A DNA stretch of 64,000 nt from a virus (taxonomy: Duplodnaviria; Caudoviricetes), in IMG/VR virus record IMGVR_UViG_3300032038_000025, positions 32,001 to 96,000 of that record; one strand, written 5' to 3'. The position numbers and the translations under genes were made by a program. This document shows positions 43-64,000 of this stretch, in pieces; position 1 is the first letter of the stretch; the number at the start of each line of letters is the position of its first letter. The notes beneath the pieces were generated by a model that was not told the origin of the DNA, did no database searches, and saw only the letters and a program-made list of their open reading frames with translations.

Positions 43-346
43 TTGAACAAAATACAAAAGGAGATATTACGCGTAATGGAAAATACAATAAATCAAGGAT
101 ATCCTATTAATAATCCTTTTGGAAGCTCGCAAAGAGGCAATCTTTCGTCAATGGGAACTCCTACGCTACAGGGCAATCTTTTAAAAAAAGGTTCTCTGCC
201 ATTAGATTACACATGCAACAATGTTTTCATATAATGTAGATCTTTCTATTGAACAGGAAGAGTTAATAGCAGATTTAATTTCCACATATGGTGAAGAAAT
301 AATTTATATCACAAATAAAATATTCACAAAGTTGGGAAACATTTAA
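43..346 (+). pseudogene. HEXXH metallopeptidase-like phage protein, split by a +1 frameshift in an A7 run
   Basis: Frame 1 reads ...LQGNLLKK. Frame 2 from 188 reads KVLCH[TAG]ITHATMFSYNVDLSIEQEELIADLISTYGEEIIYITNKIF, ending TAA at 346. Confidence 0.5.
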
Positions 347-355
347 ATATAAAAT

Positions 356-395
356 GGGGCTATTAATTTTTATAATTAATAGTCCCTGTTTTTTA
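356..395 (+). terminator. Intrinsic terminator
   Basis: ggggctattaatt-tttat-aattaatagtccc followed by a T run. Confidence 0.6.
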
Positions 396-417
396 TTATA
401 AATAAAGGGGATTAAAA

Positions 418-1461
418 ATGGATATTTTAACTGCCATAAAAATTAGGAATTTAGATGGTACATATTCAGATCCAATTCCTATAAGTGCCTTGGCAGAAAA
501 TATTGTTTATGATAAAGATCACACTTTACTAGATGCTATTGGCACAATAGATATAGATGAATTAGGAAGTCTGCAAGACCAAATTTTAGAACTTAAATAG
601 AGAGGTATTGATGCGGCGACCGCAAATGCTAATCAAGTTCCAGTCGCAGATGGACAAGGCGGCTGGTCTTGGCAAGATAAAACAAATACCTCTAATCAAG
701 TAACAAACCTTTCAAATGTTGGAGGGGTAAATATTACTCAAGCATTAAATAATCTTAATGATTTAACTCAGAGTAATCAAGAAAAAATTTTAAATATGAA
801 TAGTACAGCGGTAAATAATAATTCTTCAGTTGAAGGAGAAACTGTTTCTGCCGCTCTTGATGTTTTATCTAATAAGATAAACAATATAGATACAATGAAA
901 GCTATTAGTGTATCCCTTAGTAAAGGTTCTTGCACTATTAACGTAAAACAAAATAGCGATATTGATTATTTAGATTGCTTTACAGATATACAAGTTTTAT
1001 AGGGATCAACAGATATTACGGACCTTTGCACTTTTAGTTTTACGCCTAGTTATGGAGTTTATGGAGTGTGGATTGCTTCTTCTCATAGATATAAAATAAC
1101 AGAATTAATAGATGTTACAAAAGGTGATGTTGTTTTTAATATTTCATATAAAGGAGTAACATTAACTAGAACTTTTTCTATTGTTTTAGTATATGATGGA
1201 GAAAGCGCAATTCGTACTGAAATTGAATCTAGTGCAGGAAATATTTTCAGAGGAAATAATATTTCAACAACATTAACTTGTCGGGTGTATCAAGGCACTG
1301 AAGAAATAACCAATAAAGTTAGTTCATTTAAATGGAAAAAATATAATGCAAATGGGACACTTGATGGATCATGGACTCGGCCATTAGCTGGTAATGTAAT
1401 TGATATTACTAATGCTGATGTATATGATCGAGCAGTGTTTAAATGCGAAGTAACGATATAA
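418..1461 (+). CDS. Virion tail/baseplate-associated protein with Ig-like C-terminus, 347 aa, 2 in-frame TAG
   Basis: ORFs 418-600, 796-1002 and 1066-1461 share one frame and are separated only by TAG; ends TAA; RBS AAGGGG. Confidence 0.8.
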
Positions 1462-1474
1462 AAGGAGGAAAATA

Positions 1475-4084
1475 ATGGCAACCACTAGCTATGGTTCAAT
1501 AACTATTGTTGACATTACTGATATAGGAGAATTTAGTGTATATCCTAAATGCAATTTACCCACAACTGTTATCTATTCTCCAGATGACAATATTTATACT
1601 CCTAACTGGGTGGGTCAAAATCTAGTTATTACTCCAGTTGCATATTATGCAGGATCCCCTGTTTCAGCTAATATTACTTGGCTTTGGGAAAGACAATAGG
1701 GAAATGGAGCACGAGCGGAAGTTAGTTCAACAAAAGGAGAAACAGTTAATTCAACTACAGGCGCTTTAACTGTTAATCAAAATCAATTTAATGGATCATA
1801 TTCTCAATTAACATACATTGTTACTGCGACATATCAAGATGCTACTCTTGGAAAAAATTTAGTCGCGGAAGGCCAAATTACTTTTAGTAAAGTAGAACAA
1901 GGAACATCTGCAAAAACCGCCCGAATTACTGGAGATAATATAATTAAATATGCGGGAGATGGAACAATTATTTCTCCTATTGTTAACAATAAGTCTTATA
2001 TTACTTTAACTGGTACTGTTACAAGATGTAATATTACTAAATGGACATATAATGGAGGAACTGCCTCATATCCTGCAAAATCAAATGCAACACCAGCTAC
2101 CTATCCAAATGGAGCAAATGGAAATACATTAAATGTATATGCAGATGATGATGTTTTTATAAATGATAAGGTTACTATTAAATTATAGACTAATGATACT
2201 AATACTTATGATTAGTTTACTATATATAAATTAAGAGATGGTGCGGCGGGCATATCTACTCTATCTGCTATTTTAACTAATGAAGATCAAATGATTCCTG
2301 CCAATTCAAATGGTTCACCTGTTAATATTGCTCAAAGTGGAGCAACCTCTCAAATAAAAATATATAGAGGTGGTTCAGATGTTACTGTATCAGAAAATTG
2401 GACTATTACAACAACAAGTGATACTGGAATTACATTTGATTCAAGTAAAACCGCACAAACCAATGATACTGTTACAGTAACTGGTATGAATGCCAGTCTT
2501 GCAGCTGGTAATATTTATTTTACTGCAACACATGGCACTTAGACATTAAATAAAACTTTTTCATTAGTAAAAGTTAAAGCAGGAGCTGATGCTTAGACAT
2601 TTTCTATTTATAGTTTAAGTGTAGATGCTTTGGCTTTAAATAGAAGCGTTACTTTAAATGATCAAGGAAGTGTTTCTACAGTTACGCTTAATCCTGCAAG
2701 TTTTATTGCAAGTGCAACTGAGACATAGGTATCTCCGTCTGCTGCAACTACAAAGGCTTTTGAGGGAAAATTTAGAATTACTGAATATTCTGGCGATACT
2801 TCAGAAATAAAATATACTACTAGTTCAACAGAATCTTCAAAAACGTATACTCCAACAACATCTAATACATTAACAAAAATTTTAGTTGAATTATTAGATA
2901 CCGCAGGATCAAATGTTTTAGATAAACAAACTATCGTTATTACATCTGATGGCGCAAAAGGAGAAGATGGAGAACAGGGTCCCGCAGGTAAAGATGCTGT
3001 TAGTATTATCTTAGGAAATGAAGCAGAAGTTTTTCCTTGTGATAATAATAATAAACCATTAAGTAAAATTACTGTTAGAATACCTTTTGGTGCATACAAA
3101 GGAACAACAAGAGTTGCTGCAACTGTTAATAAACCTCAATTGCTTGGAATTGCTGCGAGCACGTCTTCCACAAATGCTACTGCTTCTAGTGATGGTGTAT
3201 TAATTTATGAAATTCCAGTGACTAAAGAAATTACTAATGCTTCTGACACTTTAGCTTTAGTGTTTACTTGTGAAGGACAAACTTTTAATAAAGTATTTAG
3301 TTGGACTAGAAGTTCTGCCGCAAAGAATGGAATTGATGGAGTAACTATGTTATTATTTACTCCTAATGGAACATTATTTGAAAATCATACTGGGGATAAT
3401 CTTACTGTTGAAGGTTATTTACAAAGCGGATCCACCGATGTAACAAGCAGCGCAACTTGGAAATGGTATCAATGGAGCACCACTGGTTATACTGCGTTAG
3501 GAACCGCGACATCCGCAAATGCGTATTATAGCGGAAAAACTTTAACAATTAAGCCAGCCGCTGTTGATGGTTATAGCTCTTTTAAAGTTGAAGCTACATA
3601 TAATAGTAAAACATACACGCAATATATTTCAATAACAGATAAAACTGATCCAATTCAAGTAAGTGTTCATTCTACTCTTGGCACTCAACTTGTAAATGGT
3701 CAAGGATCTGGCGCGCTTTATGCAAGAGTAACACGCAATGGTACTGAAATTGATCCTATTGGAGATGGCGCTATTTCGACAGGGACTGCTAATCCAAGTG
3801 GCGGAAATAATGGAGATCATTATATAAAATTAGATGAAACTAATAGAATAGCTACTTTATGGTAGAAAACTGGAAATTCTTGGAGAGCAATGACCCCAAC
3901 CGCCACATATGAATGGTATTTTAGAGATGCTCAAAATAATCCTATTACAAATAGTACAACTTTAACAAATAAATTTGGTAGTGCCTATAATAGTTCAACT
4001 GGCAAAGTAACTGGAAAGTGTTTATATATAGATAAAACAACCGTTGATAATAAAATAACTATAGATGTAAAAGTAACAGTATAA
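1475..4084 (+). CDS. Tail fibre/baseplate protein, Thr/Ser-rich beta repeats, 869 aa, 6 in-frame TAG
   Basis: One frame through TAG at 1697, 2186, 2540, 2594, 2726 and 3863; starts MATTSYGSITIVDITD; short collagen-like stretch; RBS AAGGAGG. Confidence 0.8.
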
Positions 4085-4098
4085 AAGGGGTGATAGTT

Positions 4099-7000
4099 AT
4101 GCAGCAAACAAGCTATGGAACACTTACTATTACTGATACTACAGATATAGCGCGAGTTCAAAATTGGTATTTAGCATCAAGTTCTTCTTCTGGCGTGAAA
4201 AAAACAGATGGCGGTTGGACAACAGATGTAACTAATGCTAATGCTACAATGACCGCTACTAAACAATATTTATGGAATTATGAATAGATTCAAGGAGAGG
4301 GTGCTAATGGTAGCTATATAACCATTAGCACTACAGATCCAGTTATTATTGGACGATATGGCCAGAATGGCGGGACTGGCTCCCCTGGCCGCGGTATTAC
4401 TTCTATAGATGAATATTATCAAGCTACTAATAGTACAAGTAAGCCTGGTAGTTCAGGCTGGCAAAAAAATACTTTAGTAACACCAACATCTGCGAAACCT
4501 TATTTATGGAATTATCAAGTAATTAATTATACTAATCCTACATCAACATAGGGGACATATAATGATGCTCGTATCATTGGAGTTTATGGGGACAAAGGTG
4601 ATAAGGGTGACAAAGGAGATGCAGGTCGCACTTATTTTCTTGAACTTAGCAATAATGTTATAAAAAAAGATGCAAATAATACTCTTACTCCAACATCTGT
4701 TACAATAAAGGCTTATTATAGAGACGGGACTGGTACTAAAACAGCATATTCTGGTCGAATAGTTATTATTGGTAATAAAAGTGATAATACTACAACCACG
4801 ATATCAACAACAAATGGTTCTTCCGCTTCATTAACTGCTAATGCAACATATGTAAGTTATACTATTAATTTATATGAGGCGGGTGGAACAACTAATTTAT
4901 TTGCGGCAGAAACGCTTCCTATTTTAAGTGATATTGAGAATTTATAGATTGGTGGAAGAAATCTAATTAGGCGAACCGACTACAGTATTTACGGCAACAG
5001 CGACCATTACAATAATGCTAATAAAGCAACATTCACAAATGACCGCATAACCATACAATATGGTAGTGAAGTCTACCTCAAAAATTATGTTCAGAATAAA
5101 CTCAATGAGATTATTCCGTCTGGTACAAAACTCATCGGTACGGTTCCTGTTTACAATCAAACAATTGCAGACGGCAATCATAGGCTTTACGTGTCTCCTA
5201 TGAATGAAAATGCGTCAGTAAGCTGGGTTGATATCGTGAATATTCCAACTGGCTATACAGGGGTACTCACGTGGACATACACAACAACGATGGACACTTA
5301 TGGGTTTGTTCTTGATTTTGATACGCGAAACTCCACGAGCGGCGATATGGCGCTCGGACGTATTAAACTCGAGCGTGGCAATAAATCAACCGATTGGACT
5401 CCTGCACCCGAGGATTTAGAATCATCTATTTCATTTGTTAATACAGCATTAACTAATTATATAAATACAAATGATGCTGCACTTGCCGCAGTAAAAGACC
5501 AAGCTGATAAATCATTTGATACTTGGTTTTATTCTGGACAGCCAACAGCAAATAATGCACCGGCCAACACATGGACTGATAATGCAACTAAAGCATTACA
5601 TGTTGGTGACATGTATTATGATACTGCAACTGGTAAGGCATACACTTATAATTCTAGCTATCAATGGGTTGCTCAAAGCAGTTCCAATATTGCATCTACT
5701 GATGCGATCACTGCCGCTCAAACCTTGGCAAACAGTAAAATTAAAACATATGCAGTTGCCGCTAAACCAACTTCTGGAATGAGTTCTGGAGATCTTTGGA
5801 TTGACACCGATGATAATAATCGGATGTATAGATATAATGGATCAACTTGGGTTGACATTCAGACTGAGATAAATGTTGGCGGGAGAAATCTAGCTTGGAA
5901 TTCTAAATTATTAAATATTCAGAATGGTCAAGCAAACAAATATATTTCAAAGAGGCGAGGTGCCGACATCCTTGTAACAAGAGATGACGGTTTTGGAGAA
6001 ATTCATTGTTATGGTTCAAGTTTTGGCGGAATAAGTATTTATTCGTCACAATTTGATTTTCAAGTTGGAGATGTATTAACATTATCTTTTTATGCTAAAT
6101 ATGTTGGAAATCTTAATACTCCATATATTTCATTTTATCCAATGATGTATAAAAACGGTTCAAGAAATACTTCTATTTTAATACCGATAGGGTTTGATGG
6201 AAATCCTTATGTCAATATGAATGCTAGACGATGGACAAACAAAGATGGCAGTTATAGAAATCTTACAACAAGTTATGAAAAATATTATGTAACTTTTGTA
6301 TGGACTCAAGAAATAGCCGATTTAGATTATGTTGAAATATCTGCACAAGCACTTGCTTCATGGACAGATACATCAAGTAATAGTTATGTATCTATATATA
6401 TGCCAAAATTGGAAAAAGGCAATGTCGCTACAGACTGGACTCCCGCACCCGAAGATACCGAGGCGGCAATTGCTAATCTTACTGAGTTAACAGACAGTCT
6501 CCAGAATCAAATAGATTCCAAGATTGAGACATGGACACAAGTTGCAGATCCCGCAACAGGTTGGAACACAGATGTATTAAAAGAATCTCATGTTGGTGAC
6601 CTGTGGTACTACATTGGCGAAACAACAACCAATCCTAGTCGAGAGAATAATAGTACATATAAATATACTTTATCTAATGGTACTTACTCATGGGTCAAGT
6701 ATGTCAGCGGTACAGATATGACTGGCGTGTTCGACAAGATTGATGGTAAGTCAACTATCTTCTATGGAACAACAACTGGTACATATACTGGCGTTCAGAA
6801 AGACGATTACTTAGTTGACAGTACAACAGGTAATACATATAAATATGATCCCACTGTTACGACCAACAATCATTGGGTTGAAGTGACAAATTATAAAACA
6901 GGTATTGATGAAGCGAAACAGGATGTTGTAGATCTTGATACATCACTCAATCAACAGGAAGTCTTTAATCGTCTGACAAATAATCAAGCTAATCAAGGTA

Positions 7001-8769
7001 TCTATCTGGATAATGGTAATGTATATGTTAATGCAACGTATATTAAATCTGGAGAAATAAATGCAGACTTAATTACAACAGGTAAAATAAATGCTGATCT
7101 AATTACTACTGGCCATATGAGCGCAAGTCGAATCAAAGGTGATACTCTTACTCTTGGTGGAAATAATAATGTAAACGGTTCATTATCAATACTAAACGGT
7201 AATTCTGATGTAGTTGGTACATGGAATAATACTGGAATAAATGCGGTAGCAGGAAAGATTGGCGGGTGGACTATAAATGAAAGCTATATTTATAATCCCT
7301 TGAATTACGAGGATAAAAACTATCAAGTTGCACTCTTCTCTCCAAACAACATGACGTCAGGTACAAACGCATTTTTCGTAAGATATAACTATCCTTCAAA
7401 AAATTTATATATTATTTCAAAGCAAACAAGCGGATATATAGCAGCTAATGGAACCATCGCTACTGCATCCGATACATACTTAGAAAAAACAAGTGCCTAT
7501 ATTGCGGTTACAGAAAATAGCCCATATGTTTTCCAAGTATGGTGCCCAGATCTAACCTCTAGTCAACAAATGTGGATGGGATATCAATTTTATTCTGATA
7601 CAAGTGGAACTTTAGTTGGTAGTCGTACAGCAAAGACTGGAACCGCAGGCAATACATATCTTGCATATACAGATATTGTTGCTCCTTCTGGAGCAAAATA
7701 TATAAAAGTTTCTTATAGAACATTCGGAAATGGTCATGCAAAACTAGAACAAACTACTACCGTTAATGATTGGACTCCCGCCGTAGAAGATGAAGGTTTA
7801 CCATATTCTAATGATTTTGCATATCCATTTTATATAAAATATAATGGTAAATTATTTGCAAGTAATGCAGAAATAAGGGGAGATATTGATGCAAAGTCTG
7901 GTTCAATTGCCGGATTTAGTATTTCTAGTACAGCAAATAGAGGCACCACAGCCAATGGTGGACATCCATATACAAGAGAATTATATAAAACCTCAAGCGA
8001 TGGCACACATGATTATGTAGTTGGGATGAAGGCTGATAGTGGAAATGCAACATTAAATTTTTATGTAAAACAAATTGATACTGGTAAAACATGGGAAGAC
8101 GCAAATGTTAAAAATTTATTCTGGGTAAATAATAATGGAAAATTATATGCTACAAATATACAAGTTACATTAGATGGTAGCACTTCAACAGTTAAAAATT
8201 TAAAAGCCAGTTCTCTTACTAGTGGAAATCTAGATGCATCTAAGGTTACAATTACTGGATCATTAAATATTAAACCCGGAGGAGGAGCAAGTTTGGAACT
8301 ATATGGAGAACAACCATATATAGATTTTCACTTTAATAATAGTACTGCTGATCTTACCGCACGTATAATTGAAGGCGTTAAAAATGAACTTCATTTTGTA
8401 AAAAATGCAGCATCAACAAGCTATATGACTGTTAAAGGTGTATTTTCAAACCAATCTTCTCGCAATGTAAAAAGAAATATTATTGATATTTCAGATGATG
8501 ATGCTAAAAAGTTATATGATATTAAGCCAGTTAGTTTTGATTATAAATGGGGTCAACATGGCTTTGGAATGATCGCCGAAGATGTATGTGAGGTATTACC
8601 GGAACTCGTTACTATTCCAGATGATTATAATGCTGATACATATGAGTATAAGAATTTATACGATAGTGTACCTTCACTGCATTATCAAGATTTCATACCG
8701 TATATTATTAAATTGTTGCAAGTGCAACATAAGGAAATACAAGGATTAAAGGAGATAATTGAAAAATGA
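4099..8769 (+). CDS. Long tail fibre/receptor-binding protein with C-terminal S74-type intramolecular chaperone, 1556 aa, 3 in-frame TAG
   Basis: TAG at 4285, 4549 and 4945 link to the 5191-8769 ORF. YLWNY repeats, GDKGDKGD collagen, GGRNL...DWTPAPED modules, SSRNVKRNI...GMIAED chaperone. Confidence 0.85.
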
Positions 8770-10157: not shown

Positions 10158-10209
10158 AAAAAGCCTTCTAATTAATTTTAAATAATTAATTAGAAGGCTT
10201 ATTTTTTTT
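10158..10209. terminator. Bidirectional terminator between convergent modules
   Basis: aagccttctaattaatt...aattaattagaaggctt with an A run upstream and a T run downstream. Confidence 0.8.
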
Positions 10210-11230
10210 ACTCTTTTTTAATAAGAGCAATTTGTATCTAATAAATACAATTATTATAAGTATTTATTGCATCGTTAATTCGTTTAGTATTATATACTAT
10301 TTCATAATTATCATTCTAACAAAGAAATTGAATATCATCAATAGGAGTCATTCCATCGCCTGAATGGCCAGTACTCTCATACCATGAATTGCCAGATACC
10401 CAAGGCATCCATCCTTTATTTAAAAGATGAACTTTATAAAAAATTTTACATACATTAGAGCTTACTTTTATTTTAACAATAGGGTCATTAAAAATACCTG
10501 TTTTAGTGTTATTAAAAGTATCCATTAAATACCCATGTTTAAGTGTCTATATAGTATAAGATATTTGAGGAATAATCTTACTGGGTTCTGGCTAAAGTTG
10601 CGGCGGCGTGTTGTGATATGCGGCGATGGCAGATATAATACCGCTTTGGTCTAGTTCTGTGCGGCTAACAACCTGCCTTCCCGCCACCCATAAATTTATA
10701 CAGAAATATGATAAATCAACATTCCCAGCTATTCCATTTACCTTTTCTGTTGAAGAAAAATGACATCCCTAACATATGGCTGGAATTTCTAGATTCTGTT
10801 TACTAAAATTAGCTATCCATAGCGGATAAACGCAGTCCCCGCGCATATAGTTATCAAAAAAGGTTTGATTTGTGTAAATACCCATTCGATATCCTGCCAT
10901 TTGAATGAATTGGTAAAAAGTATCTATTACATCTTTATTGTAATATTCTTCAATATCATAATAAATACACCAAGGATGGTATTTATTTACCATAGTCAAA
11001 ACCTATCTAGCTTCTTCTTTTGCTTCTTTTACATCTCTAGCATATGAGTGAAAGGAGATTGCATATGGAATATTTAATTGCTAAAAAATATATAAGAAAT
11101 CTATATTATTAGAATATTTTTTATTATATTTAATAACCGCCGCATTGAAGATACCTTTTTTATATTCATTTAAAAGTTGGTTTTGATCTATTGTATTAGA
11201 ATAATTTATAGAAATTACTTTATAAATCAT
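10208..11230 (-). CDS. Divergent GH25 muramidase-like protein with endolysin-type C-terminal cell-wall domain, 340 aa, several TAG
   Basis: HSYARDVKEAKEEAR, YYDIEE, MGIYTN, LWIANF, GIAGNVDLS, then YKVHLLNKGW; continuous frame through TAG, ends TAA. Confidence 0.7.
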
Positions 11231-11490
11231 GACTATTGTTCTTCTTCTTTTTCATTTTTTTTAGGTTGCTCAATTGGAATAGTTATAGATTTTTCTTCTG
11301 TCTAAAAACAATTATTTTGAATATAATTTATTTTTAACTATTCTCTATGATTTAATATCTATTTCCAAATCTCATTTATTAAATAATATTTTAATAAAAA
11401 GGGAATTGAAGTTTCATTATTAAAAAAATTTATAAAATTTTGTTGAAACTAAAAGCAAATATCGTTAAATGTTTTTGTCTAATTATTCAT
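11227..11490 (-). CDS. Small hypothetical protein, 87 aa, 6 TAG; resembles 9137-9328
   Basis: RBS AAAGGA; DICF[TAG]FQQNFINFFNNETSIPF; ends TGA overlapping the next ATG. Confidence 0.6.
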
Positions 11491-11505: not shown

Positions 11506-14500
11506 TCACGCACTGCCATAAACTGGCTGCCCATGAACTAATCCTTGACCAGTTGTAAAATGTATTGTTACGTTTGTTACATATCCATCTTTATCTCTTG
11601 TGCAAGTAGCACCAGTTATAGAACGAACTACTGTTCCCCAACCAGCTCCCCATTCTTGAAACTTTAATGTCCTAAGAATTGCTAAATCGCTAATCTAAGA
11701 TTTTTTAGCATATATTTTATCAAAATTTCCGACTTCGGCTTCAACAACCCCCTGAGCTAATTTGTTCATAAAATCCGTAAGAGTTTGATTTTTTCCAACT
11801 TGAAATCTATCTGGATTTATAGAAGAGAGGCCACCGCCTCCTCCACCTCCGCCGCCACCACCAGAAGTGGAATTATACATATTTATGGTAATACCTTCAC
11901 CAATAAGAGAGCCGCCATCAACTGTTCCATGAATTTTACTGAACCAAGCATCTCCATCAGAATTGATATGCCAGCCATTACCACTCATAGAGCCATCTTT
12001 ATTTAATGTGGTCTTACCACCGCTAAGTTTCTATTTACTAATATTCCAACCAGCTATTTTTCCACTATTAAACTATGCACGACCATCAGCAGAAATTTTC
12101 CAACCACTTTCATCCTCTTTATAATTTGCATAAATGCTGCCATTAGAATTTAATGTAAGTGTCTTTCCATCATTTGTGCTTGCACTAATAGTGCTATCGT
12201 CTATATTCCATTTACCTATTGTTCCGTTTGTTGAAGTTAACTATCCACCAGCTGTAACAGAAAATGTATTACCTAATTTAATTTCATCAGTCCCAAGATA
12301 AACTTGATTTTCTCCACTTCCATAAGATATAAATGACTATCCAGAATTATTGCTGTTGATAGTCCAATATTTTTTATTTTTTTTACTATCTTGTGCAACT
12401 GCATTATATCCAAGGGTTAATACACCTTCTGGAGTAACTTTAAATTTAGATCCAATAGATAAACCATTTTCTGATAAGTAAAAACCATTTCCGGTCTTTG
12501 TTAATGTATTATGACTATTAGAATAAATTTCACCATTTTCATTTAAATGAAGTTGACCACCAATTAATTCATTTTGAAAATTTGGGTCTTTTTTTGTTCC
12601 TATATTAGTTTTTCCTATTGTCCATCCTGCAATTGAGCCGCCCTATTGAGCAGTAAGATACCCCTGTTCAGTAACAGAAAAATTTCCACTACCAAATTTA
12701 ATCTATGGAGTAGATAAATCAATTAACATACCTGCTTTATTATCAGATTCTTTAATAGTACCATCTTCTTTTATAATTTTATCTTTGTCAGGAAAGCCTT
12801 TACTATTAAAATTATCATTTTTCCAATAGTTATTACTAACAATAAGTGCTTTATCTAAATTTGGACTTATAACAATTCTACCAGTATTATTTTTACCAAA
12901 TAATGCTCCACCACTCTAGCTATCTAAAAAGAAAGTGCGATCGCCGCTTGCATATCCAAAAAGACCTGTCTAAGATTTAATCTTACCTGCCTATTTTACC
13001 TCACCCATTAAAACGCCAGTAAATTGGTTATTTTCATTTTTCTTGCCTGCGCCCATTTGAGGAGATAAAATATATCCACCATCATCTTTAATTTGAATAC
13101 TATTTCCATCCCACTCGTTTAAATGAGCTAATCCATATTTATTTAATAAAAAATGAATAGGAATTCTTAATTTACCAATTTGATTCTCATTATCTTTAAT
13201 AGTGCAAAGGACCGCAACATTTACACAAGCCCCATCGTATTTCATTGCGGGTTTAACATCAAATTGATTTTTTTGATAAGTTCCTTCTCTTTGAATAATT
13301 TTTAATAAATTAAGATCTGTTTCTTCTTTCTAACCATTTACCATCATACTAATAGGCTAAAATACATAAGAAATATTATCATTTAATGAAATATTTTTCT
13401 ATATTCCATTTTCATTTTGATAACACTATATTTCAAAAGGATAAGAAGTATCATATTGAGGAGATACGCCATCAGAAGTATAAAGAACATATTTAAAACC
13501 AGTATTTTCTTTTAAATCAAATCTATAATTATTTTTATTTATATATTTAGTCATAACTGGTATTGTTCCATAATAATTTTTACCTTCATATGTAATTGTA
13601 CATTTTATTATAGTAGCAAGAGAATCTCCTTTCCAAGACCCTCTTCCAACATATCTCATTCGTCCACTTAAATGATCATCAATTTCAAAAACATGTCGAT
13701 CATATTTATCATTTAATGTCTACCAATAAACCTATTCTGGCTGAATAAGATTATTTCCTGTTTGATCAGGATCTAAATGAGTCCCTTCCCAAACAAGCTA
13801 ACCGCTCTACCAAAGTTGTGTTTTAAAAAATTGTTTAGTCCCACTATCCTTTATATATGTCTAAGAATCATAATTACCAATACCGTAGTTTACAGTATAT
13901 CCTTCGATATCCTTAATCTAAGTAATTATAACATTAGAAGGTGGATTATTCATTAAAGTATTTGGTAAAATTCTAACAACATAATTAGTACCATTCGTAC
14001 CAGGCTCGCCCTGTTTAACAAAAGTAAATTGAGTAATTGCAGAAAGCGATATATTTTTTTGATAATTAATCTATAATTTTATTTGATTATTTTGACAACG
14101 AATATTATATCTATTAGCAATTTGGTAAGGTAGGGTCATTGCATTATCAAAATATTCATACATTCCAGTCGGATCAATTCCAGAACTAGCTAACTCAGAT
14201 TCATTTGGTTTAACTAATAAAGTATCCTTCACTGGGAAAATCCATCTTATCTAACTATTAGATGGATTAACTGTAAGTGGATTACCAACATTATCATATA
14301 AAGTAAATGATAATGCTTGAATTACTTGCGGATGATCTAATGATTTATTTGTCGGTGATACACCATTTTCATCATATTGGAATGCGGCGGCCCCATTTTC
14401 AATAACTAATGAATAAGTGCCTTCAATCTATAGTTTATTTGTTAAAGTAACTGAAGCAGTTCCTAAAAAGATTTCATTTTTAGTTTCTTTATTAATGCCA

Positions 14501-16080
14501 TAAACAGAACATTTAAAAGAACCAAAAGAAACAATATTACTTATTTGAATATTTTTTATTTTATTTCCTTGAACAATTTGGCTACCCTAAGACAATTCTT
14601 CAGTTGTCTATGGTAAAGATTGTAAGATACCTTCTTTAGAAACATATCCCCAAGAGAATGAATAAGTATAATTTTCATCTTCTTCTTTATCCTATCCACC
14701 AACTAAACAGGTTAAAGTAGGACATCCATTATCATAATAAAAATCAGTCCCACTATCAGACTAAATAGATACTTTATAAGCATCATTTGCTAAATTTTGA
14801 ATATTAATCTATTTTCTTACGACAGTTCCATCATATACAATAGCAACTCTAAATCTATTATTTTCAGCTAAAGCATCTTTTAAATATAAAATATATGTAT
14901 CTGATCCAGGAACCCATTCTATAATATCCTCCTGTCCCTATTCTTGCGCGGGAATAATATTAAACTAATTTAAGCATTGCCACCCACCGCCTAAAAATCT
15001 ATTATACTATTGACTTTTAGAAGTAATTCCAATATGTTCTCTCCCCCAATAGAAAGAAATATTTTGTGCGGCAGTTGCTAATTTACCTTTTATTTTTACT
15101 TGTGCTTTAATACTTCTGTAAGATTTATCAAGGTCTTTATCCTATTCAGTAAAAAATCTTCCTTCAGGAGTCCAAAAATTAATAGCAACACCGTTAATTT
15201 CAGATTCGCTCATCCGTACAGCGCCAATTATTTCAAAATCTGAAAGAATTATATCTCCGCTATCTAATCTTTTTTCAGTCTATTTTCCTGTTGCATTTGA
15301 AAAATCTTTATTAAATATTTGAATAGACTAAACTCTAATAAAATTAGGGCCATCAATATCAAAAACCTAATATTGACGAGTTTTACGACTTAGCCTATAT
15401 GGGTTATCTACCATAAGAGTTTCATCAATAATATATTTTCTAGTAACCTATTCACCAGATGCGTTATCCTTAAAAGTTAAATTAAAAATCATTCCATAAT
15501 GACCCTCAAATTGACGCATAGGAGGAATAGCTGTTTGAATAGAAGCTCCTAATATAATTGAAGAAGATTCTTTTAAATATAATTGTATTGCTTGGTCATT
15601 TATTTTTATTTTCGGTTTCGGTTCTGCAGGTTGTTCGCCACTCTCGGACTGATCTGTTTCAGCTTCCTACCCGCCAGCCGCATAAATTGTATATATATAG
15701 TCTTCATTGTTAGTGTCTAAATAAAATTGTCCACTTGATTCAATACAATTAGTACCAATTTTATCATAAGCCTAATCTCCAACCGCCTGTGATATATAAT
15801 TAATACCTAATTTGTTGGTAGAACCAAGGATGGTTTTTTGTTTACTAAAATCTCCCTATGGCACTTGTATATATACCATAGAGCCTTGTGTGTATAATAC
15901 ATCAGTATTTGTACTAAAAGCTCTAATTGTTGAGTCTTGATATCGACATCTATATTGACCTATTGTTTCATCCTAACAAGATAAAATAACGGCCTAAATT
16001 GTTTTGTCATACTTAGCTTTTTGTACAGCATTGTCAGTTAAAATATCTATAGCATCTAAAACATTCTAACTTACATTCAT
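11506..16080 (-). CDS. Large minor tail/baseplate protein, about 1524 aa, many TAG
   Basis: RBS AAGGAGG; fragments 13426, 12991 and 11695 all in frame with ATG 16080; IAGW/IGKW beta repeats; ends TGA. Confidence 0.8.
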
Positions 16081-16395: not shown

Positions 16396-19300
16396 TTATC
16401 GTCTCATTGCGCGCTGTGCGGCAAGATTTACTAAGTTATTAAACGCATCTTCAATCTATTGTTTGCTATTAACATTTGGGAAAGATGCTTCAATTTTTAT
16501 ATTTTGTTCAATAGTATCTGATTGATTATTAAACATATTAAAACCAGATTTAATATTAGACATTTTTACTTGAAGCCCATCTTTAAAATTACCAGCAATC
16601 TATCTTAATATTGAAATACCATTTAAGAAATTTTTAGTATCATCTTGATTTAAAACTAACTACTTTTTATCAAGTATAGCAATTTGACCCTAGTCTGAAT
16701 TCCAATCTCCCGTATAACCACCAGAAGCAAATCTTGCAATAGTTCTACGAGTTAATGAATTTCCTCCTTGAAGATAAAGATGTCCAGGTTGATTTGAACT
16801 TGATGCATTTGGTTTTTTAACATTATTAGATGTGCTTCCAGATCCATCAGAACCAGATCCGCCTCCATCAGAACCAGAACCACCAGTTCCATTATCTCCA
16901 CTAGACTGATATGCATTAGATAAAGCTGCTAATCTAGCTTGTAAATTAGCGGCTGCTTGGTAAATAGTATCCGTCATTCGCTAATAAGCCTTGCCGGTTT
17001 CAGCATAAACCGCCGCTTGTTCACGCTAATTATCAATAACACTTTTAATTTGGCTGACCATTTCTTTCGCAGCTGTGGTAACATTTTTATACTGTTCTTT
17101 TAAAGCATCTGCCGCAGTTTTTAACTATAATATAGCACTAAGTTCAGTAGACATACGATTAATCAACTAATCATTCTATTCAACTAAATCAGAAAACTCA
17201 TCAGTTAATTCATCAGTTCCTTCTGCAACATCATCTAAACTGATACCCGCAATTTCTGCCATCTATTCTAACTATTTTTGATAGTTTTTAGTGGTCTAAT
17301 CTAATGCTTCAAATGCTTTTTGGGTTGCTGGTATAAGACCGCCCTCTCCAGTGATTTTATCCATCATTTGTTGAATACCACCATTCCACCCAGGAACAAG
17401 AGTTTCCATAAGCGTTTTTAATTGCTCTTTAGACATATTTTTATAATTTTCAACATTAGTATTATATAAAGACGCATAATTTTGAATGGCAGAATCCATT
17501 AAATTGTTTCTAATATTAAGATTTTGCTATATATAACCAGTAATTTTATCTTGATATGCCTCATCTAGTAATGCTATTTGCTATGCTTTCTATTCTTCAG
17601 TTAAGGTAGCATCTAACATTAACTACATTCTTTTTTCTATATATTCTTGATAAGCAGCATACATTTCATCCAAATTTTGACGATATTTATCTTTATCAAA
17701 ATTATATAATTCATTTTGAGCATCAAGATAATTTTGTTGAGCATCTTCAATGCTCTATTCATCAGCAACATATTGATAAGAATAATTACCTTGAGCATCT
17801 CGTTTTAGTCTTAAAGATGTCTTACTAGATTGCGCCTATTCAAGAGCTATTCTAGCCTGTTCAACTTGTAACAGTTTTTCTGCTCTATCAACATCATATT
17901 GAGTTAATTTTTCTCTAGTCTTTAAATTCTCTAATTGTTCATCCATTAGTTTCTTTAAAGCCTTTTGATTTTTTAACCCATCTGTATTATTAATAGCTTT
18001 TTGGAATTTGTTTTCAAGAGATTGAAGTTCATAAGCAGAATTTACAGTATCTAAATATTCATCTGCGGCATCCTGCATATACTCCCACTCTTGACCTAGA
18101 TAATCAAGTCCTTTACCATTAGTAAGATTATTATTTAATTCTTCAAAAATTAAATTAAAAGTATTAGTATATTTATCTCTAATAAGATTTGCGCCATCCT
18201 ATATAGCGGAATTGATATTCTAAATAGCTCTCTTATAATTTTCTTCAAACTTTTCAGCTGCATTTGTCTGACCTGCGGCGATTGCAGCATCACGCCGTTG
18301 TTTCAAGAAATCCGCCTGTTTTCTTAATGAATCAATCTGCTTATTTTGATTATTTAGCATTTTATTATAATATTTATCCATTGCCGCATAATTCTTATCA
18401 CCATAAAGAATTTGCAATAAATCAATATTATGCTAAATTAAACCATTAACAAAATCATATCCTTCAATTTGTTTATCAAATTGATCTGCAATATCATCAA
18501 TAGTATCAAGATAAGCCTTATCAATATTATCAACAAGCTACTCAACTTCTTCCATTTGGTTCATTAATTCTTCCCAATCCTAAACCAAATGTTCCATAGC
18601 TTGTGCTTTGTCTTTGCCATAAATATCAGACCAACCAGTTTCATTGATTTCATTTATTTCTGCAAAATCTGCTTTTAATTGGTTAGTTAGTTTTTCGATT
18701 GAACCAATTGATCCACCTAAACCGCCATCTCCAAAGTATGAACGAAGATCATTAAAATCTTGTTTAACATCTCCAAATAATTCATCAAATTCACTATCTT
18801 TAAGAATATCTGTCGGCTAAAGAACATTTCTTACAAAATCATTCCAATCTCTTGCGGCTTCACCCATATCAAGACGAAGTTCAATTGAATAGCGGAATTT
18901 TTTAATATTATTTTCAATTTGCTTTTGAAGAGCTTCATCAAGAGCATCATTAGTTTCACCATACTCATTTTGAATATCTTCATATTGTTTAATTGCGCTC
19001 TAAAGCTATTTAAGTGCATCTTCGCCCTATTTGATTTTATCATCATATTCTTTAATAGCGGCAGATAGACCCTCTTTATAGGCTTTATCGGTAGATTTAT
19101 TATATTTCTAAACAAGTTCATTTCTTTGAGCAATTAATCCATTTAATTCAGACTATTTTCCAGTTAAAATCTATTGATAATTAGCAATATTATTATATTT
19201 ATCAAAAGTAACACCAAGATTTTTAAGAGTCTATCTTTGATTCTTTAAATCCTATTTTTGAATTTTTTGTTTTTCTTTTAATTTAGCAATACTTTTATCA

Positions 19301-27226: not shown

Positions 27227-27240
27227 ATAAATACCTCCTT

Positions 27241-27272
27241 AAAAAAGAAAGGAGAGAAATAAATCTCTCCTT
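27241..27272 (-). terminator. Hairpin/terminator between holin and endolysin
   Basis: aaggagaga-aataaa-tctctcctt with a U tract on the minus strand. Confidence 0.55.
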
Positions 27273-27285
27273 AATTAATAGTTAC

Positions 27286-27555: not shown

Positions 27556-27568
27556 AATAATATCCCCC

Positions 27569-38530: not shown

Positions 38531-38549
38531 AGAAGTTTTTCCTCTCTTT

Positions 38550-39098: not shown

Positions 39099-39101
39099 TT
39101 A

Positions 39102-39347
39102 TCAAAACTCCTACCACTCTAATACACTAGTTATCACTATTCCTAAGTCTTCTATTGTACGATTTCCAATTAGCGTGACTCCATTAATAGAAGGTAAATT
39201 TATTAACTTCTCATAATCCTTTTCAACAACTTTATAAAAGGGATCAGAAAGAGACATTTTTATTTTATCATTTAGCTCTTTAACAGACATTTTTATTTTA
39301 TCATTTGACTCTTTAACATGCATATCAACTTTTAATACTTTATCCAT
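39102..39347 (-). CDS. Small structural protein, 81 aa
   Basis: DYEKLINLPSINGVTLIGN...; reading through TAG 39111 gives W[TAG]EF-TGA directly before the next ATG. Confidence 0.65.
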
Positions 39348-39348
39348 G

Positions 39349-39651
39349 TTAAATCACCTACCTATATAAAATCTCTGTAACATCTATATCTTCTATTGAA
39401 GTTGCCCAAACAAGACCATCTTTAGTTTTACCTTTTATTTGAATGCGGGCGGGACCCGGCTTAAAAAGTAAAGTATTTTTCTGGCTTAACTCAATTGTCA
39501 CAACATTATTTTCAATAGAAACATCCTCTTTTGTTTTAGTTAATCTAGTTGGACCTTGAGAGATAGTTACATAAATATCGTCAATAGACTATTGTAAAAC
39601 CTATTCATTATCAAGAAAACATTGAATAGTAGGAGTCGTAGATCTAATCAT
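39349..39651 (-). CDS. BppU-like/baseplate upper domain protein, 100 aa, 3 TAG
   Basis: MIRSTTPT...IYVTISQG...LSQKNTLLF...RIQIKG; RBS GGGAGG. Confidence 0.65.
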
Positions 39652-39751
39652 ATATTTTACCTCCCACAAAAAATAATTTAAAAACACCTTTTCATATTTT
39701 ATATGAAAAATTCTCATATTTAATTGTCTCACTTTGACCATAATTTTTTTC

Positions 39752-45022: not shown

Positions 45023-45538
45023 ATGTTACATATTTATATAGATGGAAGTTGTCGCGGGAATGGTTATAAAGATTCTCGAGGCGGGTTCGGGATAGTAATA
45101 TTTGACAACCGCCGCAATTTAATTGATGCCTATTGTTAGCAATTTGATAATGTAACAAATAATCAAATGGAATTAAAAGCATTCCTAAAAACATTTGAAT
45201 TACTAAATACAAAATATAAAAATTAGGAAGCAACTATTTATTCTGATTCTGCATATTGTATAAATATCCTCACTTCATGGATTTACTCTTGGAGTAAAAA
45301 TAATTGGAAAAATAGTAAACATGAAACAATAAAAAATTTAGATATTATTTTATCTATATATAAATATTATAATATAGATTTTTTTATAAATCAAATAAAT
45401 TTTATAAAAGTTGATGGTCATAATGGAATTATAGGTAATTAGTTAGCGGATGCTCTTGCAACGGCAGACAAATTAAAATTTTCAAATATTATATTACAAA
45501 ATCATATAAACATTAACCTTTTGGAAAAAACTTGCTAA
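45023..45538 (+). CDS. rnhA: Ribonuclease HI, 171 aa, 3 TAG (absent from the ORF track)
   Basis: IYIDGSCRGN, TNNQMELKA, YSDSAY, KNLD, KVDGHNGIIGN[TAG]LADALA. Confidence 0.9.
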
Positions 45539-53241: not shown

Positions 53242-53258
53242 GCATATTGGAGGAAAAA

Positions 53259-54179
53259 ATGATATTATTAATATTAGGTTTTATCTTTCTAATATGCGGT
53301 TTAATTCTTTTTTATAATGCTAATCAAATTAAAATTTAGAAAAATTTAAAGCAAGAATAGTATAAATCTCAGTTAGAAAAAGAAGTTCATAATTTACAAG
53401 TAGATAGAAATAATTTAATTAATACTGAAATACAAAAAAGAAAATAGTTGAAAGATGAGTTTTTACTTTTTCAACAATAGCAAGAAAAAGAATTAAATAA
53501 AAATTTTTAGAAAGAAAAACAAATAATTAAATTAAATCTTGAAAAAGTTAATTATGAAACTTCTAAATAGATTGAAGATATTCATAAAGATTTAAGTAAT
53601 ATTCGATAGTCAGCTATAAAAGAAAAAAAGCAAATATAGAATGAATTAAATAAATTAAAATCATCTCTTAGCGCGGGTGTAGAAGCGCGTCTCCGCTAGC
53701 AATAGAAAAAGGATAAAATTAATTTTTATAAACTTTCAATTTCTGATGCAGATTTAGCTGATGTTAAAATGTTAGAAAATTTAAAAGCATCTTTTCATAA
53801 GCCTGTTGTTTTAAGTAAACTTATATGGACACAATATTTTCAAAAACAAATGACTTAGTTATGTGATAGGGTATTTGGTAAAAAAATAATTTGTGGCATC
53901 TATAAGATTACTGATTTAATTACTGAAGAATGCTATATTGGACAAAGTGTAAATATTCAATAGAGAATGAAACAACATTGCAAATGCGGGTTGGGGATTG
54001 AAGCGTCCGCCACAAATAAATTATATAATACCATGCAAAAAGACGGAGTCTGGAATTTTTCTTTTGAATTATTAGAAGAATGCCCAAAAGAACTATTAAA
54101 TGAAAAAGAAAAATTTTGGATATAGATGTATCAAAGCAATAAATTCGGTTTAAATACTGTAAGAGGGAATAAAACATGA
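53259..54179 (+). CDS. Membrane-anchored coiled-coil GIY-YIG endonuclease, 306 aa, 13 TAG (absent from the ORF track)
   Basis: RBS GGAGG; MILLILGFIFLICGLILFY; GIYKIT...CYIGQS; NFSFELLEEC; EKFWI[TAG]MYQS...GLN. Confidence 0.85.
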
Positions 54180-60630: not shown

Positions 60631-61065
60631 ATGAATAAAGAAAAAGTTATATATTGTACTATATGCGGTAAAAAAATTAATCCTGGTGATGCATATAGTT
60701 TTAAAAATGGTTAGATAGATAACCAGCATAAAGAATGTAGAATAATGGGATGCTATGATGACAAACCATGGACATTTTTTCCAATTATGCAACTTTTTAA
60801 TATTCCTTATATTGAAAATCAATGGTTCAAGCGCATGAAATCTCAAATAAAAATTACAATTAATACTCATCAATACAAAAGTATATTTGGAAAATATCTT
60901 TCTACAATGAAATTAGCAGGTTATCGAAATTTTGAATTTCAAGATAGTCCTTTATTAAATATGCCAAATGATCTGATAAAAGATAAACCAATAAGGGATT
61001 TTTTATTAGATTCTGATATTCCTCAAGAATACTTTCAAATAATTGAATTTAAAGAAAATGTATAA
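60631..61065 (+). CDS. Zn-finger hypothetical protein, 144 aa, 1 TAG
   Basis: YCTICGK...KNG[TAG]IDNQHKEC...FGKYLSTMKL. Confidence 0.65.
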
Positions 61066-62164
61066 ATATGATAAAGAAGAATTAAAAAAGGAATTAACTT
61101 TAGAGCAAATCTATGATTTATTAACAGAGTTAGGAGCAGAGCCAATTCTTAAAGATAATTGTATTATTTGCAAAACAATATGCCACAATAGTGATTTAGC
61201 TAATGCAAGTCATAAACTTTACTACTATTCAAATACCCGATTATTTCATTGTTATACAGGATGTGGTGATGCTTCATTTGATATATATGACTTAGTATTA
61301 AGAGTAAATAAAACGGCGGGAATCCAAAATTTTTCTTTACCTCGTGCTATTGCATTTGTAGCTCGATATTTTGGATATACGGCAGATACTTTTAATTTTG
61401 AAGATAATCAAGAAGCAAGTGAAGATTGGAAAATAATTAATAATTATAAAAGAAATAAAGAAAAAAATCAACCACAAATTGTAGAATTAAAAACTTATGA
61501 TAATAAAGTATTAAGATATTTACCTCGACCGCATATTATTCCTTGGGAAGAAGAAGGTATTTCTTTTGACATTATTGAATCAAGAGGAATTTGTTATGAT
61601 CCAATAAATGAAGGAATTGTAATTCCTCATTATGATATAAATGGAAATTTAATTGGGATTAGAGAAAGAACAATTATAAAAGAAAATGAAGTATATGGTA
61701 AATATCGGCCTGCAATTATTAATGGAAAAATGTATAACCATCCGCTTGGTTTTTCACTTTATAATCTTAACAATAGTAAAAATGCCATTTCTCAATTTAA
61801 AAAGGCTATTGTATTTGAAGGCGAAAAAAGTACATTATTATATGCATCTTACTTTGGAGAAGAGTCAGATATTAGTGTAGCATGTTGCGGCAGTAATTTA
61901 ATTAATTATCAAGTAAAACTACTTTTATCTCTTGGAGTAAAAGAAATTATTATAGCTTTTGATAAACAGTTTCAAAAAATTGGAGATAATGAATGGCAAA
62001 AATGGGTTACTAAATTAAAAACGCTATATAATAAATATAGTAGTTATGTAAACATTTCTTATCTTTTTGATAAAGAGAATATTTTAGGATATAAAGATTC
62101 GCCTATTGATTGCGGAAAAGATAAATTTATTCAATTGTTTAAAAATAGAATAATATTAGAATAA
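61058..62164 (+). CDS. DNA primase (Zn finger + Toprim)
   Basis: TICHN...FHCYTGC, IPHYD, LYNLN, FEGEKS, IAFDK, KDSPID. Confidence 0.85.
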   Translation: MYKYDKEELKKELTLEQIYDLLTELGAEPILKDNCIICKTICHNSDLANASHKLYYYSNTRLFHCYTGCGDASFDIYDLVLRVNKTAGIQNFSLPRAIAFVARYFGYTADTFNFEDNQEASEDWKIINNYKRNKEKNQPQIVELKTYDNKVLRYLPRPHIIPWEEEGISFDIIESRGICYDPINEGIVIPHYDINGNLIGIRERTIIKENEVYGKYRPAIINGKMYNHPLGFSLYNLNNSKNAISQFKKAIVFEGEKSTLLYASYFGEESDISVACCGSNLINYQVKLLLSLGVKEIIIAFDKQFQKIGDNEWQKWVTKLKTLYNKYSSYVNISYLFDKENILGYKDSPIDCGKDKFIQLFKNRIILE

Positions 62165-62206
62165 AGAAAGAATTGACTTGACAATTCTTTCTTTTTTTAT
62201 TATAAT
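62163..62206 (+). promoter_or_regulatory. Terminator overlapping a consensus promoter
   Basis: aaagaaagaattg-acttga-caattctttcttt; TTGACA(62178)-N17-TATAAT. Confidence 0.7.
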
Positions 62207-62243
62207 ATAAATAGAAAATTATTATAATAAAGGAGTTTAATTA

Positions 62244-62504
62244 ATGAATGTAATAAAAATAGATATGATTAAAATTAAATAGGCTATACAAGAATATATT
62301 TATTTTCACACAGAATGGATGCAAGTTGATACCATAATAAATTATGAACGTCCTATTGTTTTTATGAATGAAGATACTTTTTTACAAATCAAAAAAGAAC
62401 AATCATTTTTACAAGATTGCTGTCTAAAGCCTGAGAAAAAAATTTTTGGATGTCATATTGCAATCGCGGATTGGCTTCCTTTTGGAGAGGTTCAATTGAA
62501 ATGA
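62244..62504 (+). CDS. Hypothetical protein, 86 aa, 1 TAG
   Basis: RBS AAGGAG; ends GCHIAIADWLPFGEVQLK. Confidence 0.6.
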
Positions 62505-64000
62505 AATATGAATTAATAAATCAACCAAATAAAAATTTTTCAGCAATTCAACAAATTTTATATAATAGAGGAATGACAGAAAATGAAATTTTACATTATG
62601 TAAATTTATCTGATTAGGATATAAATTCACCTTTATCATTAGGGGAAGAAAATTTAAAAGATGGTTTAAAATTACTTTTAAATGCAATTTCAAAAGAAAG
62701 AAATGCAATAATTATTGTAGACTGCGACTGTGATGGTTATACATCTGCCGCACTTCTGATTAATTATTTATATAAATTATTTCCCGCTTGGGTAAATAAT
62801 CATTTAGATTGGATTATGCATGATAGTAAGCAACATGGTTTATCTGATTGTATAAATAAAATTTCAAATTATTATTCCCTAGTTATTTGTCCAGATTCAA
62901 GCAGCAATGATTATAAATATCATTAGGATTTATTTCATAAAGGAATTGGAGTTTTAGTACTAGATCATCACTTAGCAGATAATATTAGTCAATATGCAGT
63001 AATTATTAATAATCAATTATCTACTTATCCTAATAAAGAATTATCTGGTGTTGGAATTGTTTGGCAATTTTGTAGATATTTAGATTCTATATTAGAAGTA
63101 AATTATGCAGACGAGTTTCTTGATCTAGTTGCGCTTGGAAACTGCGGAGATATGATGTCTTTACGCTCATTTGAAACTCGTTACCTTATTACAAAAGGAT
63201 TTAAAAAATAGAATATAAAAAATCCATTTATTGATTATATGCTTGATAAAAACTCTTTTCCGCTATCAAAGGCTGATTATGTATCATCTAACTCCGATAT
63301 GGCTTGCACATCTATGGGCGCCGCATTTTTTATTGTACCCTTTGTTAATGCAGTTACGCGTAGCGGAACAATAGAATAGAAAAATTTATTATTTAATTCT
63401 ATGTTAAATCATCAGGCATTTCAAGAAGTTCTTTCAACGAAACGAGGACATAAATTAGGAGAGAAAGAAAAATTAATTTTACAAGCAGTTAGAACAGTCA
63501 CAAACGTTAAAAATAGACAAACAAGAGCAGAAGAAGCTGGCTTGGCCATGTTAGAAAAAATGATTGAAGTTAATCATATGCTCGATCATAAAATTCTTTT
63601 ATTTTTACTAGAGCCAGGCCAAATTGATTCCGAAATTCGCGGTTTAATTGCAAATAAATTTATGGCAAAATATCAAAGACCATGTTGTTTGTTAACACGA
63701 ACTAGCAGAAATGGAAAAGAGTCTTATGAAGGCTCAATGCGAGGCTACACCAAGACAGGTATTGATAATTTTAAGGAAGTTCTTGAACAATGCCCAGAAG
63801 TTATTTATGTGCAAGGACATTAGAATGCAGCTGGTCTAAGTATTCAAGGAGATCAAACTAATAATTTTCTTTATCATATTGATCAACTTTTAGAAGATGT
63901 CTCTACTGAACCTGTTTATAGAATAGATTATGATTTTAAAGAAACAGATAATAATAATCAATATATTTTAGAAATTGCAAATATGAATGATTATTGGGGA
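62501..64000 (+). CDS. recJ: RecJ-like DHH ssDNA exonuclease, truncated by the window, at least 5 TAG
   Basis: DCDCDGYTS, KQHGL, PDS, LDHH, LSGVG, VNAVTR, GSMRG, QGH[TAG]NAAG; TAG at 62615, 62924, 63209, 63377, 63821. Confidence 0.85.

Follow-up and report, generated by a model that had tools for sequence, protein, structure and literature searches.

A phage of the Caudoviricetes, represented by the IMG/VR record IMGVR_UViG_3300032038_000025, very probably uses a genetic code in which TAG is read predominantly as glutamate while TAA and TGA terminate translation. The window analyzed here is a stretch of 64,000 nucleotides corresponding to genome positions 32001–96000 of that record, which is 117,928 bp long, linear, of 32% GC and, by the IMG/VR classification, 88% complete; coordinates are those of the window unless genome positions are indicated. 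Among public sequencing runs, the one that best matches the stretch is a bovine-gut metagenome, which may be the source sample, and none of the runs listed is an RNA run; contigs from that run cover the stretch, and the differences listed for them include none at the lysin TAGs, an observation to which no weight is given here; relatives were found on contigs of 90–148 kb from gut and rumen assemblies, and the host likely belongs to the Bacillota. That TAG might stand for glutamate rather than glutamine had been proposed from the letters of the window alone (the sequence-only reading), on the ground that in-frame TAG codons occupy motif positions calling for glutamate.

TAG is a sense codon in this phage, and TAA and TGA remain its stops. 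The standard code breaks up the tail and lysis region, whereas TAG as a sense codon yields long genes of up to 2854 amino acids; the claim that in-frame TAGs join fragments of open reading frames (ORFs) into complete genes is borne out by genes which stay open over 2854 amino acids with 85 TAGs, or over 1524 amino acids with 42. Over the whole genome, 368 TAGs are in frame (some 200 of these fall within the window), in a set of 124 ORFs delimited by TAA or TGA, of which 104 end in TAA and 20 in TGA; ORFs of at least 100 amino acids without an internal TAG have TAA or TGA as their final stop, never TAG. Most of the TAGs fall in genes for the tail, the tape measure and lysis; genes for replication have almost none. 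Homologs of a 1166-amino acid protein and of the 1524-amino acid protein align through the TAG positions without breaks. All 29 TAGs compared are conserved in L005, an independent assembly from another run, as are 136 of 227 aligned TAG sites in L010–L012 (59/107, 38/67, and 39/53), and such recurrence in independent assemblies argues against assembly errors for GAG, which the sequence-only reading had itself named as a possible source of the codons. Ten of its twelve motifs were checked site by site, and nine were confirmed: the TAGs at 16456, 16660, 26963, 27029, 38300, 45440, 54123, 60367, and 63377 are in frame, in long genes and in the context described. The tenth, CH[TAG]ITH at 203, had been taken for the HExxH motif of a metalloprotease; it was rejected because it lies outside any gene, in a tiny frame (188–234) seven codons past a stop, and is no metalloprotease motif.

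In the database proteins of the closest relatives, glutamine is found at every TAG position; the records are flagged “with_TAG=Q” and the underlying codons are TAG. These glutamines thus reflect the code 15 assumption of the gene caller, and residues were for this reason compared at the codon level instead. The phage proteins, carrying X at each TAG, were aligned by tblastn to the DNA of relatives (L005–L013) and the codon opposite each codon of the phage was read, with empirical substitution tables drawn from the same alignments and one relative taken per site. Opposite the 174 TAG sites covered in this way, E (51) is ahead of D (20), Q (17), T (13), and N (11). When all 20 amino acids are ranked by log-likelihood (lnL), glutamate comes first (0), followed by glutamine (−50.3), aspartate (−64), and lysine (−71), which means that glutamine is rejected by about 22 orders of magnitude in likelihood; bootstrapping of the tally placed glutamate first in 2000 of 2000 replicates. 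The tally is independent of the hand-picked motifs of the sequence-only reading and calibrated on the phage's own glutamine and glutamate codons, and the residues facing TAG in homologs are dominated by E, not by Q, as that reading would have it.

The calibration is informative in itself: CAA/CAG codons of the phage face Q in 39% and E in 9% of cases, GAA/GAG codons face E in 39% and Q in 6%, and TAG faces E in 29% and Q in 10%. Against L006, a relative with a mostly standard code, 60 TAGs face E 19 times and Q twice, while CAA/CAG face Q in 46 of 121 and GAA/GAG face E in 92 of 221 cases. When the phage's own codons for E, Q, K, D, N, S, T, and Y were masked and held out, each was recovered in 200 of 200 trials. 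Every genomic region, taken separately, favors glutamate at TAG, with lnL differences between E and Q of 22 for L006/L008, 22.5 for L009, 26 for L013 (the tail genes of the window, 128 sites), and 26 for the closer relatives. Protein alignments, for which hundreds of homologs of the TAG-rich proteins are available at 40–47% identity, give a similar picture: in the 1166-amino acid protein, TAG columns contain 38% E and 9% Q and CAA/CAG columns 40% Q; in the 1524-amino acid protein, TAG columns contain 23% E and 14% Q, GAA/GAG columns 25% E and 10% Q, and CAA/CAG columns 43% Q and 9% E. Some relatives are TAG-recoded themselves, and their TAGs are likewise found opposite glutamate codons of the phage; those of L013, for example, face E 13 times, TAG seven times and Q twice. 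Composition was examined as well: Q plus TAG amounts to 7.5% in TAG-rich and 2.9% in TAG-free genes, E plus TAG to 9.0% and 6.9%, a contrast that leans at most mildly toward glutamate, as all NAG codons are depleted in the TAG-rich genes. With a 378-amino acid structural protein as query, no relative was found among viral contigs, and tblastn of the 1166-amino acid protein against annotated phages returned one distant match.

Single conserved positions point the same way. In the endolysin, X88 (TAG at 26963–26965) aligns with the catalytic glutamate of the GH25 D-x-E motif, as seen against PDB 2wag, in a column which is E in 109 of 115 homologs, and X66 (TAG at 27029–27031) lies in a column with E in 110 of 115 (96%); both sites therefore call for glutamate, as had been claimed. 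The ortholog of this lysin on L141, a standard-code contig, is 86% identical and has GAA and GAG at the two sites; the lysins of two other recoded phages (L139, ENA ERZ28653902 scaffold_338, and L140, Logan SRR11702763), 43–47% identical, have TAG in both glutamate columns, the catalytic one included. Judged from these alignments, it is not credible that GH25 muramidases of three lineages should have glutamine as their catalytic acid. The expectation of glutamate also held for RecJ, where X310 (TAG at 63377–63379, SGTIE[TAG]K) stands in a column with E in 122 of 138 homologs (88%), and for RNase H, where X140 (TAG at 45440–45442) corresponds to the E of GN-E-x-A-D in human RNase H1 and E. coli RNase HI (and to S in 3h08). 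Among the columns conserved to at least 75% opposite TAG in four alignments, eight are E, three Y, three Q, and one each S, N, and W; the Glu columns comprise X66 and X88 of the lysin, X310 of RecJ, and five in the 1166- and 1524-amino acid proteins.

Outside the window, a tRNA with anticodon CUA, a synthetase or a release factor had been named as genes to look for. One tRNA with anticodon CUA was found by ARAGORN at genome positions 14367–14438, 17.6 kb upstream of the window and within an array of 21 tRNA genes (genome 10.7–19.8 kb); it scores 55.9 bits with the Rfam tRNA model and is of the tRNA-Glu type. The record, 88% complete, contains no gene for a release factor, for glutamyl-tRNA synthetase (GluRS) or for glutaminyl-tRNA synthetase (GlnRS). 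tRNA(CUA) has a U11-A24 pair, an extra D-loop base, a variable loop of 4 nt (AAAC), A73, and C1-G72, whereas in the tRNA-Gln encoded by the phage the corresponding pair is C11-G24, the variable loop is 5 nt long, and G73 takes the place of A73; the former fits the tRNA-Glu of Bacillota, with its D-arm GGUCAAGYGGUUAAGAC including U11-A24, its 4-nt variable loop and A73. A scan of one genome per prokaryotic species recovered the 18-nt D-arm of tRNA(CUA) at no fewer than 120 loci, nearly all in Bacillota; among the matches listed, its carriers were tRNA-Glu in 116 of 116 cases (UUC 96, CUC 20), and none of 34 tRNA-Gln genes in the same loci had it. With the anticodon set aside, tRNA(CUA) shows an identity of 0.65 with the tRNA-Glu and of 0.46 with the tRNA-Gln genes of these loci; leaving out the D-arm as well gives 0.55 and 0.39, respectively. 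On these sequence features, the body of tRNA(CUA) is shown to be that of a tRNA-Glu of Bacillota (Firmicutes). As tRNA-Glu(CUC) occurs naturally in these bacteria, the suppressor anticodon differs from a glutamate anticodon at position 36 only.

CUA tRNAs with the same tRNA-Glu-type D-arm are also present on two other viral contigs, L134:1477–1548 (IMG/VR 3300021400_001383), which shares the AAAC variable loop, and L135:986–1060 (IMG/VR 2974671799_000001, a 234-kb contig); no relationship of either to the phage was detectable in the loci fetched (13 and 1.3 kb). Exact-pattern scans of viral contigs returned two matches for a Glu-type and three for a Gln-type CUA tRNA, numbers too small to estimate prevalence. 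Within the phage array, tRNA-Lys(UUU) (genome 17473–17556, 84 nt) and tRNA-Cys(GCA) (genome 19674–19758, 85 nt) have long extra arms, unusual for their isotypes, and the tRNA-Tyr of the phage scores only 31 bits with Rfam.

A mechanism suggested by the tRNA body and by glutamate at the TAG sites is that host GluRS charges tRNA(CUA) with glutamate and would recognize it by three identity elements, namely its tRNA-Glu D-arm, its variable loop of 4 nt, and A73. Full-length GlnRS is encoded in five of five rumen and gut Bacillota which have this type of tRNA-Glu (G001–G005, the genomes behind L018, L021, L029, L059, and L086; Selenomonas, Lactonifactor, Ruminococcus, Pseudobutyrivibrio, and Butyrivibrio); GatB was found in three of the five, with no match in the other two. 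The idea of a host without GlnRS, in which a non-discriminating GluRS acts with GatCAB and a tRNA lacking U1-A72 stays charged with glutamate, is thus unsupported, and with GlnRS in all five the tRNA must avoid this enzyme by features of its own. Where tRNA-Gln has U1-A72 and G73, tRNA(CUA) has C1-G72 and A73, which may aid such an escape; by the identity rules of E. coli GlnRS both are plausible anti-determinants. Once expressed, tRNA(CUA) would outcompete release factor 1 at UAG, and late genes, the endolysin included, would become translatable only then. By analogy with other recoded phages, we infer a role in timing, for which the lysin, with TAG at codon 66 and at its catalytic residue, would be the clearest case.

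About ten genes have a TAG within 0–4 codons of their own TAA or TGA terminator, for example those at 11227–11490, 39102–39347, and 39349–39741 and at genome positions 3445–3711 and 114159–114743. This may be chance, or TAG may serve there as a first, leaky stop for as long as the suppressor has not been expressed.

Several observations weigh against a code in which TAG is simply glutamate. TAG sites resemble glutamate positions somewhat less than GAA/GAG sites do: in a two-component fit, 80% of their behavior is Glu-like (95% confidence interval (CI) 0.65–0.92), and pure glutamate is worse by 5.3 lnL than a mixture of glutamate and glutamine. TAG occurs in the three conserved Gln, three Tyr, and one Trp columns mentioned above (and in one Ser and one Asn column), and the codons of the relatives in the Gln, Tyr, and Trp columns are genuine CAA/CAG, TAT, and TGG. 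Among closer relatives, TAG exchanges 62 times with GAA/GAG and also 35 times with CAA/CAG. Concerning the tRNA, true GlnRS is present in all five Bacillota tested, E. coli GluRS reads the anticodon, and amber suppressors derived from tRNA-Glu in E. coli (Abelson and Miller laboratories, ~1990) were reportedly charged largely with glutamine. Glutamate delivery in the phage and glutamine delivery in E. coli would imply either that the host GluRS and GlnRS differ in specificity from those of E. coli or that the tRNA has features which block GlnRS. As for the non-Glu partners of TAG (Q, Y, W, and S), they are encoded by single-nucleotide neighbors of TAG and can therefore be explained by their mutational origin; the simplest reading would be that young TAG codons arose partly by missense mutation of neighboring codons, CAG to TAG being a transition. 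What stands of the original claim is the predominance of glutamate, qualified by a modest Gln-like excess at TAG compared with GAA/GAG sites.

This excess could also mean that TAG is ambiguous, most tRNA(CUA) carrying glutamate and a fraction glutamine, through mischarging by GlnRS or amidation of the Glu-tRNA, so that the positions would be statistically Glu or Gln. The 20% Gln-like component of the mixture (CI 8–35%), the conserved Gln columns occupied by TAG, the 35 exchanges with CAA/CAG, and the presence of GlnRS in all five genomes of the candidate host type would fit; yet columns which are 88–96% glutamate, including the catalytic residue of the lysin, are encoded by TAG in several lineages, which would be costly if the glutamine fraction were sizeable. 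The glutamine excess is more simply derived from C-to-T changes in CAG, changes of TAT and TGG to TAG would account for the Tyr and Trp columns in the same way, and tRNA(CUA) lacks the features of tRNA-Gln (D-arm, 5-nt variable loop, U1-A72, G73); we therefore regard ambiguity as improbable. Less probable still, and in our view very unlikely, is ordinary code 15, the glutamine reading of TAG known from crAss-like and Lak phages and assumed by current gene callers. No other amber reassignment has been reported in phages whose code departs from that of the host, and the database proteins of the relatives agree with code 15, but their glutamines are assumed rather than observed; glutamine is disfavored by 50 lnL units, it would cost the GH25 enzymes of three phage lineages their catalytic acid, and the tRNA is of the Glu type. 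That the TAGs are not translated at all, being assembly or sequencing errors, marks of pseudogenes, or true gene boundaries, found no support in the data and can practically be dismissed given 368 of them in frame in genes open for up to 2854 codons, their conservation in independent assemblies from other runs, the unbroken alignment of homologs, a dedicated tRNA(CUA), and the absence of TAG as final stop of any ORF of at least 100 amino acids without an internal TAG. Glutamate as the predominant meaning of TAG is thus the reading we favor.

The main features of the window, with TAG counts referring to in-frame codons, are as follows.

418–1461, plus strand: structural ORF, 347 amino acids, 2 TAGs.

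1475–4084, plus strand: tail protein, 869 amino acids, 7 TAGs (phrog_3267, E=1.5e-46; 90% identical in L010).

4090–8769, plus strand: tail fibre-like protein with a Peptidase_S74 chaperone domain, 1559 amino acids, 3 TAGs.

10208–11230, minus strand: second GH25-like endolysin, 340 amino acids, 7 TAGs (Pfam PF01183, PHROG endolysin).

11227–11490, minus strand: small ORF, 87 amino acids, 6 TAGs, conserved in L010–L013.

11506–16080, minus strand: large tail protein, 1524 amino acids, 42 TAGs.

16396–24960, minus strand: tail tape-measure protein, 2854 amino acids, 85 TAGs (PHROG tape-measure families, best E=1e-55; aligned to L013 and L010 in the codon tally).

25601–27226, minus strand: endolysin (GH25 and CHAP), 541 amino acids, 3 TAGs (Pfam, alignment to PDB 2wag).

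27286–36748, minus strand: TAG-free block of six genes (105, 779, 643, 297, 604, and 718 amino acids).

37622–39741, minus strand: four ORFs (302, 182, 81, and 130 amino acids) with 2, 4, 1, and 3 TAGs.

39724–62164, plus strand: replication and nucleotide-metabolism block, almost TAG-free (Metallophos, RNA ligase, gyrase B and A, NAD-dependent DNA ligase, AAA_24, DnaB-like helicase).

45023–45538, plus strand: RNase HI, 171 amino acids, 3 TAGs.

53247–54179, plus strand: GIY-YIG nuclease, 310 amino acids, 13 TAGs (Pfam PF01541).

62450–64000, plus strand: RecJ-like exonuclease, continuing beyond the end of the window, 5 TAGs within it (phrog_2484, E=1e-116).

The six-gene TAG-free block, whose 105-amino acid holin-like gene adjoins the endolysin, resembles together with the latter (25601–36748, minus strand) a block on L141, a contig of 92 kb which also carries an integrase; the first five block genes and the lysin are 63–95% identical to their counterparts there and the sixth is 44% identical, and the L141 genes include LRR and DUF285-type proteins. 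From this comparison, the segment looks like a recently exchanged host-recognition and lysis module, in which TAGs would since have been gained by the lysin only, at GAA and GAG codons. The replication genes of L139 are 60–73% identical to those of the phage. The TAG-free gene of a 527-amino acid DUF2828/DUF7788 protein (genome 19805–21388, 12.2 kb upstream of the window) neighbors the tRNA array; in relatives (L006:6660–8177) this protein is 81–88% identical while adjacent structural genes reach only 30–47%, a conservation that is unusually high as far as these alignments go.

If TAG is glutamate, the public record of these phages is affected. Gene callers that recode TAG write Q, by which the catalytic glutamate of a lysin becomes glutamine in public collections, and for a whole group of rumen and gut phages the error carries over into predicted functions, predicted structures, and proteomic searches. 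Proteins mistranslated in this way are P0003, P0072, P0123–P0125, P0130, P0282, and P0337 (Logan and some ENA-derived entries), and in one mistranslated lysin the catalytic motif is written D-W-Q or D-Q-Q. Residue tallies made on “with_TAG=Q” translations are consequently biased toward glutamine. We lean slightly toward the wider view that TAG as glutamate, with TAA and TGA as stops, is a distinct natural code shared by several lineages of rumen and gut phages which infect Bacillota and are only distantly related to each other, each with a suppressor derived from tRNA-Glu and charged by host GluRS despite the presence of GlnRS. Should this be true, public code 15 translations of these phages would be wrong at every TAG, and some published TAG=Gln assignments for phages of Bacillota might need re-examination. 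If well supported, the change of TAG to glutamate adds a natural code variant in the bacterial and viral world; host GluRS, beyond GlnRS or tryptophanyl-tRNA synthetase, could then be co-opted, and a natural glutamate-inserting amber suppressor from phages of Bacillota would be of interest in genetic-code engineering.

Reading of UAG as glutamate by a suppressor derived from tRNA-Glu is known from peritrich ciliates (NCBI table 30) and Blastocrithidia (table 31). The phage would share with them the decoding of UAG as glutamate, here an evolutionary inference; it differs in that the eukaryotic codes reassign both UAA and UAG, in every gene and in eukaryotic nuclei, whereas here a virus, whose host presumably uses the standard code, reassigns TAG only and keeps TAA as its main terminator (104/124). 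The laboratory tRNA-Glu amber suppressors of E. coli likewise combine a tRNA-Glu body with a CUA anticodon; they are, reportedly, largely mischarged with glutamine, while the natural tRNA of the phage appears to carry mainly glutamate.

Three kinds of recoding have been described in phages: TAG to glutamine, TGA to tryptophan, and, in hosts which have this code themselves, TGA to glycine. Where the codes of phage and host differ, only the first two are seen according to Borges et al. (preprint 10.1101/2021.08.26.457843). Code 15 is used by crAss-like, Lak, Garnet, Topaz, Agate, and other phages (10.1101/2021.08.26.457843; Peters et al., PMC9523058; Crisci et al., PMC8346664); in Lak phages TAG aligns with Q in 75–85% of informative cases, in crAss-like phages TAG as glutamine is backed by proteomics, and a survey of 180 phage suppressor tRNAs found the isotypes Gln, Trp, Ile, and Tyr and no Glu. 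Full-text open-access literature and bioRxiv yielded nothing relevant on TAG or UAG as glutamate in phages, though an earlier report elsewhere is possible. Like the present phage, code 15 phages translate TAG within late, structural, and lysis genes while avoiding it in early ones, encode a tRNA(CUA) without a dedicated synthetase, and keep TAA and TGA as stops, the presumed role being the timing of late expression. Unlike it, their TAGs align with glutamine, whereas here they align with glutamate and the tRNA derives from tRNA-Glu; also, the likely host phylum here is Bacillota rather than Bacteroidota.

Similar in layout are phAss-1 and the proposed Phassvirus, siphophages of the gut (PMC10607447), whose genomes are large, of siphovirus type, and equipped with a tape-measure gene of great length; many of their virion genes contain TAG, they encode tRNA(CUA) but no synthetase, and their relatives infect Bacillota. 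With the one protein used as query, no relationship to this group was detectable. It differs from the phage described here in the assignment made by its authors, who read TAG as glutamine from the tRNAscan isotype and a TerL alignment (PMC10607447).

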